A stretch of DNA of 64,000 bases. Origin: Escherichia phage vB_EcoM-P3322. The first letter of the stretch is position 1. Each line of letters begins with the position of its first letter. A program made the translations under genes and the position numbers. Of the stretch, positions 17,343 through 19,374 are shown one piece after another. The stretch lies in the sequence record PV191315.1, one strand, 5' to 3'. The notes beneath the pieces were generated by a model, which was not told the origin of the DNA, searched no databases, and was given only the letters and a program-made list of their open reading frames with translations.

Positions 17343-18101
17343 ATGGGAAATAAAACCGCAGCTAAAACACAACGGCAGAAACTGGCTAATTCAGCAAAGA
17401 TTGAAAGCCGTTATGCAGCAAAAGCGGTAGGTAATGACGATTACCGTTTAGATGAATTTATGCCTGAAGGGGACCAAAATAAGATTGTTCAAAGCATGAT
17501 TTGGAATGATCTGACTGTTGTAAATGCTCCGGCAGGGACTGGTAAAACCTCTGTTGCTTTATGGAAAGCTTTGCAGATGCTTCGTTCAGGAGACTTCCGT
17601 AAACTACTTTTTATCAAGAACCCTACTGAAGTCGGAGATGACCAGATTGGTTTCTTGTCTGGGGATAAAACAGATAAACTAGCAGCACACTATGAATCTA
17701 CAAAACGTATTTTCCAGCAATTCATGACAGCCAACAAATTGGAAAACGATATTGGATCAGGTAAGATCGAATTGAATATTCCTAACTATTTGTTGGGGGC
17801 CACCCTGGATAATACTATCGTCATTATTGACGAAGCACAACTTATGTCAACAGAAACACTTAAACTTCTTATTGAACGTGCAGGTATTAATACGCATGTT
17901 ATTGTATTAGGCGATGTTCGCCAGACATATGCAATTAAAAAACGTAGTAATGGTCTGCATCAAATTTTGGAACTTTTATATCCAGAGAATGAAGAAGGTG
18001 TTCGTGAGCCAATTGTAGATTTTATTGGATATGTTGAACTGACAACGGACGATAATAAACGTGGACGTTTGTCTAAACTGATTACTGAAGTGTTTATTTA
18101 A
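17343..18101 (+). CDS. phoH: PhoH-like ATPase
   Basis: Walker A GTGKTS; PhoH-like length; ATG 17343 after AAAGGAG. Confidence 0.85.
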   Translation: MGNKTAAKTQRQKLANSAKIESRYAAKAVGNDDYRLDEFMPEGDQNKIVQSMIWNDLTVVNAPAGTGKTSVALWKALQMLRSGDFRKLLFIKNPTEVGDDQIGFLSGDKTDKLAAHYESTKRIFQQFMTANKLENDIGSGKIELNIPNYLLGATLDNTIVIIDEAQLMSTETLKLLIERAGINTHVIVLGDVRQTYAIKKRSNGLHQILELLYPENEEGVREPIVDFIGYVELTTDDNKRGRLSKLITEVFI

Positions 18102-18136: not shown

Positions 18137-18637
18137 ATGGGTGTAGCAACAATAGCTATCGGAAGAAGCGGTATAGATGAGTGCTATCAAACGGGACTCG
18201 TAAAACCTAACGAATTTCGTCAAATTTGTGTAAACCATATTGAAAAAGAGATTGCTCTTACTTTAGAGAATATGACCCTCCGAGATAAACTGGAAATGTT
18301 TAAATGTTGGTGTCTAGGAGAAGATTGGCTTTTAAACCATTTTCAAGAACTTTCTGATAGTAAAGAAAGCTTGTTTGATTGTATAATAGGAATAGCTGGC
18401 TCCGATCCTAGCCTTCTGCACATAACAGAAGAAGAGGCGAAGTTACTGTTCTTAAGTAATTTGTTTAATAAGAAAGCACTGCTTGTTCGTGATTGCAGTG
18501 ATCTTCTTAATAACCCGCTCGCAACGTCTGATCAAATTTTTGTTGACAAAGAGACACTACGTGCGATAGAATACATCTGCAAATATGTGAATGGCGGGAA
18601 AGCGGTTCTTAAAACATTAACAGAGGAGGAAGAATAG
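18137..18637 (+). CDS. hypothetical protein
   Basis: RBS AAGGAGG. Confidence 0.6.
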   Translation: MGVATIAIGRSGIDECYQTGLVKPNEFRQICVNHIEKEIALTLENMTLRDKLEMFKCWCLGEDWLLNHFQELSDSKESLFDCIIGIAGSDPSLLHITEEEAKLLFLSNLFNKKALLVRDCSDLLNNPLATSDQIFVDKETLRAIEYICKYVNGGKAVLKTLTEEEE

Positions 18638-19329
18638 TGACGACAATTATTGCAACCAAAAATAAGATTTTGAGTGACGGTAAGGTAACTTTTGGTGGAC
18701 GTGTAGATTCTATTAATTTCAAAAAGGTTCGAAAAATTGGAGATTACCTTGTAGGTGGTGCTGGTCGTCTGACCTCCGTGCTTTCTTTCTTTCAATGGTT
18801 TGAACAAAATCTACAGTGCGAAGCAGCACGTGATGCTGTCCCTGGTTTGATGATTCACTCTGATCCAGACAAAGAAGATGAAGAATTTATTGCACTTGTT
18901 GTTCATCCAGATGGACGTATTTTCCTGCACGAAGGTAACAACCCAACACGTGCATATCCGATTGATGAAGAATATTATGCAGTAGGAAGTGGGTCAGACT
19001 TTGCTTTAGCTGCTCTTGACGCAGGGGCAACACCAGAACAAGCTATGGAAGTAGCTAAAAAGCGAGATGCTTTTTCTGGTGGTGAAACATTTATTGAAGA
19101 ACAAGACGAGATTATTGAATTAACAGACGATGATTTAGAAAACTTCTCCAAAGAAGAATTGATCAATCTTTTGAAATTCGGTAATCCCTACGGTGAAGAA
19201 GAACCTCGTAACGTGGCAGGTAACGAGGCGGATACTGAAGAAAAATCTGTTGCAGAAAACAACTTGACTTCTAAATCTGAAAATATTAATCTCGTAAATG
19301 TGGCGGATTTCGAAGGAACCGCTATTTAA
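18637..19329 (+). CDS. HslV/proteasome-beta-like Ntn peptidase with acidic C-terminal extension
   Basis: N-terminal MTTIIATKN (Thr1 nucleophile); GxGxxxS-like segments; GTG start after GAGGAGGA. Confidence 0.5.
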   Translation: MTTIIATKNKILSDGKVTFGGRVDSINFKKVRKIGDYLVGGAGRLTSVLSFFQWFEQNLQCEAARDAVPGLMIHSDPDKEDEEFIALVVHPDGRIFLHEGNNPTRAYPIDEEYYAVGSGSDFALAALDAGATPEQAMEVAKKRDAFSGGETFIEEQDEIIELTDDDLENFSKEELINLLKFGNPYGEEEPRNVAGNEADTEEKSVAENNLTSKSENINLVNVADFEGTAI

Positions 19330-19335
19330 CAAACT

Positions 19336-19355
19336 GCCCCTTCGGGGGCATTTCT
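19336..19355 (+). terminator. stem-loop terminator
   Basis: gcccc-ttcg-ggggc then atttctt. Confidence 0.6.
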
Positions 19356-19374
19356 TAAACATAGGAGATTAATA

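Follow-up and report, generated by a model that had tools for sequence, protein, structure and literature searches.

The phage vB_EcoM-P3322 of Escherichia encodes a 230-residue protein that, as judged from its sequence and predicted structure, is a proteasome-fold N-terminal nucleophile (Ntn) hydrolase with a complete, invariant catalytic set. Its gene lies at 18637..19329 (+ strand) of the 64,000-nucleotide stretch of sequence record PV191315.1 that was analyzed (the window), begins with GTG, and was taken from the open reading frame (ORF) listing of the window; the encoded N terminus is MTTIIATKNKILSDGK. The sequence-only reading had described the product as a peptidase resembling HslV and the proteasome beta subunit. 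Alignments and the AlphaFold and Foldseek comparisons (E about 1e-10) bear out the fold and the catalytic residues of that description, but the protein is not an HslV ortholog. We somewhat favor the interpretation that it is an active Thr1 peptidase of the PPH type that operates without a dedicated unfoldase and uses its C terminus for assembly or for the recruitment of partners or substrates. The gene, its annotation, and its family were already present in databases and in a 2021 survey (discussed below), and the idea of the sequence-only reading is not new at the annotation level. New here are the placement of the protein as PPH-type rather than HslV, the retention of the 20S-like Asp166/Ser169 motif, the negative search for a partner ATPase, and the definition of an extended subfamily.

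Proteasome fold and active site

We aligned the protein with 58 relatives (27–81% identity) and scored the conservation of each column. Residues Thr2, Thr3, Ile4, Asp14, Lys30, Gly43, Gly117-Ser118-Gly119, and Asp144 were invariant, and Ser147-Gly148-Gly149 was kept in at least 90% of the relatives. Aligned to Escherichia coli HslV, the conserved columns correspond to Thr1, Asp17, Lys33, the oxyanion-loop Gly, and Ser124-Gly125. Profile comparison with the T. acidophilum beta subunit and human beta5 equated Ser118, Asp144, and Ser147 with Ser129, Asp166, and Ser169, respectively; the local motif is RDAFSGG versus RDSASGG in T. acidophilum beta and RDAYSGG in human beta5. The earlier assignment had been staked on finding the catalytic residues by profile alignment to HslV and 20S beta subunits: they map to both, and the Thr1, Asp17, Lys33, Gly, Ser, and Asp equivalents do not vary among the relatives. 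The closest solved sequences were HslV chains (T. maritima 1m4y, E 5e-9, improving to 3e-14 with the family profile), and the C-terminal half scored best against beta5 subunits in a profile search (E 6e-10). An hhalign comparison with beta5 gave a probability of 95%, with the alignment ending at residue 159.

The AlphaFold monomer model (predicted local distance difference test score (pLDDT) averaging 84 overall and above 90 in the core) contains the alpha-beta-beta-alpha sandwich. Foldseek searches with this model retrieved HslV (6kui, 1e-10), BPH (5ovt), and archaeal and eukaryotic 20S beta subunits with E values of 1e-10 to 1e-8 and a probability of 1.00. One long helix (residues 45–67) is followed in the model by a loop (residues 68–83) in place of HslV helix H2, which pairs with H1 in HslV to make up the apical surface that faces HslU, and this second helix is likewise missing from the model of a 304-residue relative (P0075).

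The placement of Thr directly after the initiator Met, to which the sequence-only reading had pointed in the start MTTIIATKN, is shared by the homologs. An MTT[IV] N terminus occurs in 124 of 145 cluster representatives and the family-profile matches begin at residue 1, which together support the GTG start. Because Thr directly follows Met, there is no propeptide. Methionine aminopeptidase removes Met ahead of small residues such as Thr.

PPH-type assignment

The NCBIfam HslV equivalog models NF003964 and TIGR03692 gave scores of 32.2 and 31.4 bits, far below their cut-offs of 137 and 157.75. In HslV, the C-terminal tail of HslU is housed by Phe54, Phe57, Ala79, Lys80, and Gln114 (PMC6429459). 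This pocket is mostly lost from the phage protein: Gln114 is replaced by Arg, Ala79 and Lys80 nominally fall inside the loop that lacks H2, and Phe57 is the sole pocket residue kept. The position of HslV Lys28, which we take from HslUV structures to be a further residue accepting the HslU tail, is occupied by Ser25 in a variable Ser/Gln/Thr/Asp column. Because the equivalog scores are below the cut-offs, helix H2 is absent, and the pocket residues are not kept, we conclude from sequence and model that the protein is a PPH-type proteasome homolog and not an ortholog of HslV, the placement resting on the published description of PPH. In that description, Fuchs, Alva and Lupas (2021) define PPH (family representative WP_042125023.1) as a proteasome-like group I core of ∼140 residues that lacks helix H2 and is found in tailed phages or in the prophage regions of host genomes; they saw neither an AAA+ partner that co-occurs with it nor a gene context that is informative (PMC8665760). 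RPC (representative WP_140207863), which is likewise described as lacking H2 and carries an uncharacterized C-terminal domain, was reported only from proteobacterial genomes (PMC8665760). The representative library is rich in short relatives (137–150 residues) that also begin with MTTI. The family profile matched 4,263 clusters (50% identity) at E ≤1e-10, a count that probably includes cellular HslV, and about 47 BFVD viral structure clusters have the same fold.

The C-terminal extension

The last ∼70 residues had been noted as highly acidic, and residues 161–230 indeed contain 18 Asp/Glu versus 5 Lys/Arg for a net charge of −13. The extension is non-catalytic, and a Pfam scan of it gave no match. 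Its proximal motif (residues ∼160–184) is moderately conserved. A hidden Markov model (HMM) of residues 156–186 matched PPH homologs only, as searched against six-frame ORFs from the window, from phAPEC8, and from the further loci retrieved before this search, and it also recovered Aeromonas and Vibrio phage homologs outside its training set (E 4e-10 to 8e-5). The two-helix motif is present in 46 of the 145 representatives of 50%-identity clusters, always directly after the core.

The distal tail behaves differently, with a mean column conservation of 0.16 versus 0.72–0.74 in the core. Its acidity is conserved: among the 112 relatives whose tails reach 15 residues or more, Asp/Glu exceeds Lys/Arg in 110 (means of 26% versus 8%), these 112 sequences not being independent and including many close relatives. 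The pattern suggests a tail selected for charge over sequence. In other lineages the acidic segment is a linker to a further module. One such module is a folded domain built from four strands plus three helices, predicted with pLDDT >90 in P0075 (residues ∼200–293) and found also in Klebsiella phage FBKp34, Aeromonas phage phiA019, and Vibrio phages VnaP and 424E50-1; loci of the longer relatives that carry it are L005:4001-4915, L002:91-966, L007:4001-4834, and L003:4001-4867. By eye, the last helices of this domain resemble a helix-extended-helix/SAP-type motif, for which there was no Pfam match. Another module is a CxxC plus Trp-rich domain (P0061-P0063, P0068). By these sequence criteria, three traits mark out the extended PPH subfamily: a helical motif specific to it, an acidic tail conserved in charge, and interchangeable modules at the C terminus.

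According to Fuchs et al., the C termini in this group of proteins point away from the rings that they presumably form and could serve as sites of interaction, and the C-terminal helix H5 stabilizes the double ring in 20S beta and Anbu (PMC8665760). Homology of the proximal motif to 20S helix H5 was considered and is unsupported at the sequence level, as the hhalign alignment stops ahead of it.

Proposed mechanism

After removal of Met, Thr would become residue 1 and act as the nucleophile, aided by the Asp17 and Lys33 equivalents, the oxyanion-hole Gly, and a Ser129/Asp166/Ser169 scaffold. We infer an active threonine peptidase with no canonical HslU docking; self-compartmentalization into rings is an assumption made from the fold. 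A cognate HslU/ClpX-like ATPase had been proposed as something to look for elsewhere in the genome; neither the whole phAPEC8 annotation nor Pfam scans of 14 further proteins, including ten larger hypothetical ones, revealed any HslU-, ClpX-, ClpA-, or Lon-like gene. Because helix H2, the HslU-tail residues, and an HslU/ClpX-type phage gene are all missing, the enzyme most likely works without a dedicated unfoldase. It would then cut peptides or unstructured polypeptides during the early-to-middle phase of host takeover, and action on such substrates has been proposed for unfoldase-less homologs such as BPH and the uncapped 20S proteasome (PMC8665760). The two-helix motif, located at the position of H5 in 20S beta and Anbu, would probably serve in assembly or docking. 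The disordered acidic tail would project outward and probably recruit or filter partners or substrates electrostatically.

Several points weigh against this interpretation. We found no functional or biochemical study of any phage PPH or HslV-like protein in the searchable literature, and genome papers merely mention HslV as present without HslU. Alignment of the H2 region is unreliable in a protein without that helix, so the loss of Ala79 and Lys80 is nominal, and the missing HslU pocket leaves room for other modes of docking with host HslU, ClpX, or a phage AAA ATPase. The packing of the extension helices and the H5 analogy are positional guesses from monomer models, and early-to-middle expression is deduced from the gene neighborhood alone.

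Alternative interpretations

The alternatives rank in the order of host HslU, a non-peptidase Ntn activity, a phage ATPase, and a prohead protease or decoy. E. coli encodes HslU, and the phage protein could be a functional HslV that captures the host ATPase to form a hybrid ATP-dependent HslUV-like protease, redirecting host proteolysis. This is the foremost alternative, and we consider it improbable. The status of HslV chains as the closest solved sequences and the retention of helix H1 residues Phe57 and Glu61 are in its favor, but they are set against equivalog scores of 32 and 31 bits where 137 and 158 are called for, the absence of the helix that supplies Ala79 and Lys80 to the HslU-tail pocket, and the lack of conservation of Lys28 and Gln114. 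Homologs are also found in phages that infect widely different hosts, without an hslU gene close by, and no AAA+ partner was seen by Fuchs et al. to co-occur (PMC8665760).

The full proteasome-beta catalytic constellation, including RDxxSGG, is difficult to reconcile with the second alternative, in which the protein is not a general peptidase but an Ntn enzyme of a different kind, such as a processing enzyme with sequence specificity or a connectase-like transpeptidase/ligase. The AlphaFold model has no connectase-type S3-S4 insertion, and all of the closest sequence and fold matches are peptidases. We judge this possibility to be an unlikely one, despite the precedent that proteasome-fold enzymes include the ligase connectase and that Ntn hydrolases are functionally diverse (PMC8665760). 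Loss of H2 may also alter ring assembly, and the variable C-terminal modules suggest specific targets.

Pairing with an ATPase of the phage itself, be it the stand-alone AAA protein gp014 (phAPEC8 numbering) or the neighboring PhoH-like P-loop ATPase, carries less weight still and appears quite doubtful. The match of gp014 to PF00004 and its weak resemblance to the classic-clade AAA unfoldases Rix7, VCP, and Afg2 are offset by its distance from the PPH gene, by the sequence TQPY at the KYVG pore-loop position of classic-clade AAA proteins, and by a distribution unlike that of PPH, its relatives being found mainly in Enterococcus, Bacillus, Staphylococcus, and Lactococcus phages. We rejected gp014, the only protein that the search for a partner ATPase brought up, as a demonstrated partner on the basis of this distribution and the non-canonical pore-loop position. 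As separate observations, relatives of gp014 occur widely among SPO1-like, jumbo, and crAss-like phages, and gp014 adjoins an endonuclease-annotated gene with CapR and treble-clef zinc-finger domains. In Stephanstirmvirinae, Aeromonas Plateaulakevirus, and two Vibrio phages, PhoH precedes PPH by 1–3 genes, an arrangement seen in Klebsiella phage FBKp34, phiA019 of Aeromonas, VnaP and 424E50-1 of Vibrio, and two metagenomic relatives, but it is SF1-helicase-like and not a protein unfoldase, and it is not adjacent to PPH in Caulobacter or Rhizobium phages. The order of the lysozyme, glutaredoxin, and ribonucleotide reductase (RNR) genes is equally kept; the linkage may be shared backbone only and was not accepted as functional coupling.

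Hardly any credence is given to a role as a prohead (head-maturation) protease, or as a decoy without catalytic activity that would poison the HslV rings of the host: phages commonly encode capsid-maturation proteases and the HslV fold is shared, but the prohead role is rejected given a separate Peptidase_S78_2/XkdF-type protease (gp117) between the portal and capsid genes while PPH sits in a nucleotide-metabolism block, and the decoy is opposed by the invariant catalytic residues and by the ∼28% identity to E. coli HslV and missing H2, which make mixed rings unlikely. phAPEC8 gp117 (L010:19988-20467, outside the window) is labeled "DNA methyltransferase" in RefSeq and matches Peptidase_S78_2/XkdF (E 1.4e-11) as well as head-maturation-protease PHROGs; by these matches it is probably the prohead protease, so that head maturation does not require PPH.

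A bolder form of the favored interpretation, the PPH-type peptidase acting without an unfoldase, would make the extended PPH an unfoldase-independent mini-proteasome and modular degrader, in which a constant core, a helical clasp, and interchangeable targeting modules deliver host proteins for destruction during takeover. The modules would be the disordered acidic tail in this phage, the strand-and-helix domain in Klebsiella, Aeromonas, and Vibrio phages, and the CxxC plus Trp-rich domain in still others. The acidic-tail forms would target basic proteins, such as nucleoid-associated or DNA-binding defense proteins. We regard this elaboration as a long shot.

The gene, its relatives, and its surroundings

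The ORF matches PHROG 1040 (E 1.6e-63 over residues 1–229 of 230) and, just over the gathering cut-off, the Pfam Proteasome family PF00227 (25.6 versus 22.4 bits). Because of these matches and its homologs, it is judged by sequence comparison to be a genuine gene and not a chance ORF. The protein has 88 homologs in a set of 5.8 billion proteins, and PPH homologs were found in 233 of 50,697 phage records, including phages of Escherichia, Vibrio, Caulobacter, Aeromonas, Klebsiella, and Rhizobium. The surrounding 4 kb is 99.4–99.7% identical to dozens of Phapecoctavirus genomes (phAPEC8-like E. coli myoviruses, Stephanstirmvirinae), and 64 sequenced isolates carry the protein at ≥95% identity. 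It is 100% identical to gp175 of Escherichia phage phAPEC8 (YP_007348462.1), named "peptidase HslV family" in RefSeq; elsewhere it is recorded as "ATP-dependent protease subunit HslV" or "putative proteasome component". The features of the window are collected in Table 1.

Table 1 Positions of the PPH gene, its protein segments, and other features discussed (window coordinates)
Feature	Position	Strand	Remarks
Whole coding sequence, predicted PPH-type proteasome/HslV-like threonine peptidase	18637..19329	+	230 aa plus stop; 100% identical to phAPEC8 gp175
Catalytic Ntn-hydrolase core, aa 1-155	18637..19101	+	Invariant columns; mapping to HslV / 20S beta; model pLDDT >90
Active-site codons, first part	Thr2 (mature Thr1) 18640-18642; Asp14 18676-18678; Lys30 18724-18726; Gly43 18763-18765	+	
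Active-site codons, second part	Ser118 18988-18990; Asp144 19066-19068; Ser147 19075-19077	+	
Proximal extension, aa ∼160-184 (IELTDDDLENFSKEELINLLKFGNP)	19114..19188	+	Two predicted short helices, aa 164-169 and 172-181; pLDDT about 85-88
Distal acidic tail, aa 185-230	19189..19326	+	Predicted disordered; pLDDT <50 for aa 192-214
Shine-Dalgarno GAGGAGG and GTG start	18623..18639	+	GAGGAGG at 18623-18629, 8-14 nt 5' of the start; read from sequence
Sigma-70-like promoter match (TTGACA, 18 nt, TAGAAT; 11/12)	18543..18572	+	Within gp174, about 65 nt before the PPH start; consensus match only
GC-rich hairpin (TGCCCC-TTCG-GGGGCA) and T-rich tract	19335..19357	+	6 nt past the PPH stop; z = -2.9
Upstream ORF gp174, 167 aa	18134..18637	+	PHROG 14834; no Pfam match; directly 5' of the PPH gene
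PhoH-like P-loop ATPase	17343..18101	+	Upstream of the PPH gene, with one gene (gp174) between them; order lysozyme, PhoH, 1-3 small ORFs, PPH in four phage lineages
Stand-alone AAA ATPase, phAPEC8 gp014, 379 aa	62837-63973	-	PF00004, 29.9 bits; ∼43 kb from the PPH gene

The gene is part of a co-directional block of thymidylate synthase, RNR, glutaredoxin, dTDP-sugar enzymes, lysozyme, PhoH, gp174, and PPH, followed by a methyltransferase. Its GTG start shares one base with the TAG stop of the upstream ORF (TAGTG), and this overlap makes translational coupling possible. Homologs of gp174 lie directly upstream of PPH in enterobacterial relatives only (FBKp34, L012, L013; 24–38% identity), and jackhmmer and hhalign gave nothing significant for a gp174 homolog in the Vibrio, Aeromonas, Caulobacter, or Rhizobium phages; gp174 is possibly a partner or accessory protein of PPH. 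PADLOC gave no match, so no anti-defense or defense relatives were found. The hairpin beyond the stop codon is likely an intrinsic terminator closing the transcription unit. Together with the promoter match, it could yield a short dedicated transcript beside read-through from upstream; sigma-70-like matches in the region are in total no more numerous than in shuffled sequences.

In VEcB records MT932211.1 / NC_052663.1 (21498-22298; P0066), a 267-residue ORF fuses the first ∼113 residues of PhoH in frame to PPH from about residue 66. The fusion implies a deletion of ∼1.2 kb that removes Thr1, the gp174 homolog, and half of PhoH, and a second VEcB record, OZ035773.1, is longer by 1,183 bp. The fusion is either a viable deletion variant or an assembly error; if it is a genuine viable deletion, the peptidase is dispensable in culture.

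Proteasome homologs for which no unfoldase is known (PPH, BPH, Anbu, and others) are widespread, with no phage member having an assigned function. The phage is a well-propagated, genetically tractable E. coli phage, for which mutant phage and recombinant enzyme are easy to make. If the enzyme is active alone and its C-terminal modules select targets, it would represent a new phage route to host-proteome remodeling and offer a first entry point to the function of the PPH family; should it only recycle peptides in general, it would be an ordinary accessory gene.

Comparison with known systems

The closest likeness is to PPH. The phage protein shares with it the Thr1/Asp17/Lys33/Gly47 group I core without H2 or a propeptide, an origin in tailed phages, short relatives of ∼140 residues that begin with MTTI too, and the lack of a known AAA+ partner or informative context. 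It differs in length, with a core of ∼155 and an extension of ∼75 residues making up its 230 residues, versus ∼140 for PPH. HslV (ClpQ), the peptidase of the bacterial HslUV protease and a dodecamer of two stacked hexameric rings, has the same fold, a Thr1 exposed by Met removal, and the Asp17/Lys33/Gly-Ser-Gly residues, and it provides the closest solved structure and sequence. In contrast to HslV, to which it is ∼28% identical, the phage protein falls far under the equivalog cut-offs, lacks H2, does not keep Lys28, Ala79/Lys80, or Gln114 of the HslU-tail pocket, has a C-terminal extension, and comes from a phage with no hslU gene; it also keeps the 20S-type RDxxSGG (Asp166/Ser169), which did not align to HslV. 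The beta-proteobacterial proteasome homolog (BPH) of Thiobacillus denitrificans (5ovs/5ovt) was the second-best structural match and is likewise a group I protein with no known unfoldase, but the phage protein has no H2 and the sequence similarity is marginal (E about 1). Both contain an acidic element, which is a long acidic pore loop in BPH (PMC8665760) and the C-terminal tail in the phage protein. With 20S beta subunits, the phage protein shares the full active-site set, including Ser129/Asp166/Ser169, and its C-terminal half aligns best to beta5; the extension helices occupy the chain position of helix H5, a likeness that is positional only, with the alignment ending at residue 159. Compared with the 20S beta subunits, it is much smaller and has no propeptide, no alpha subunit, and no H2.

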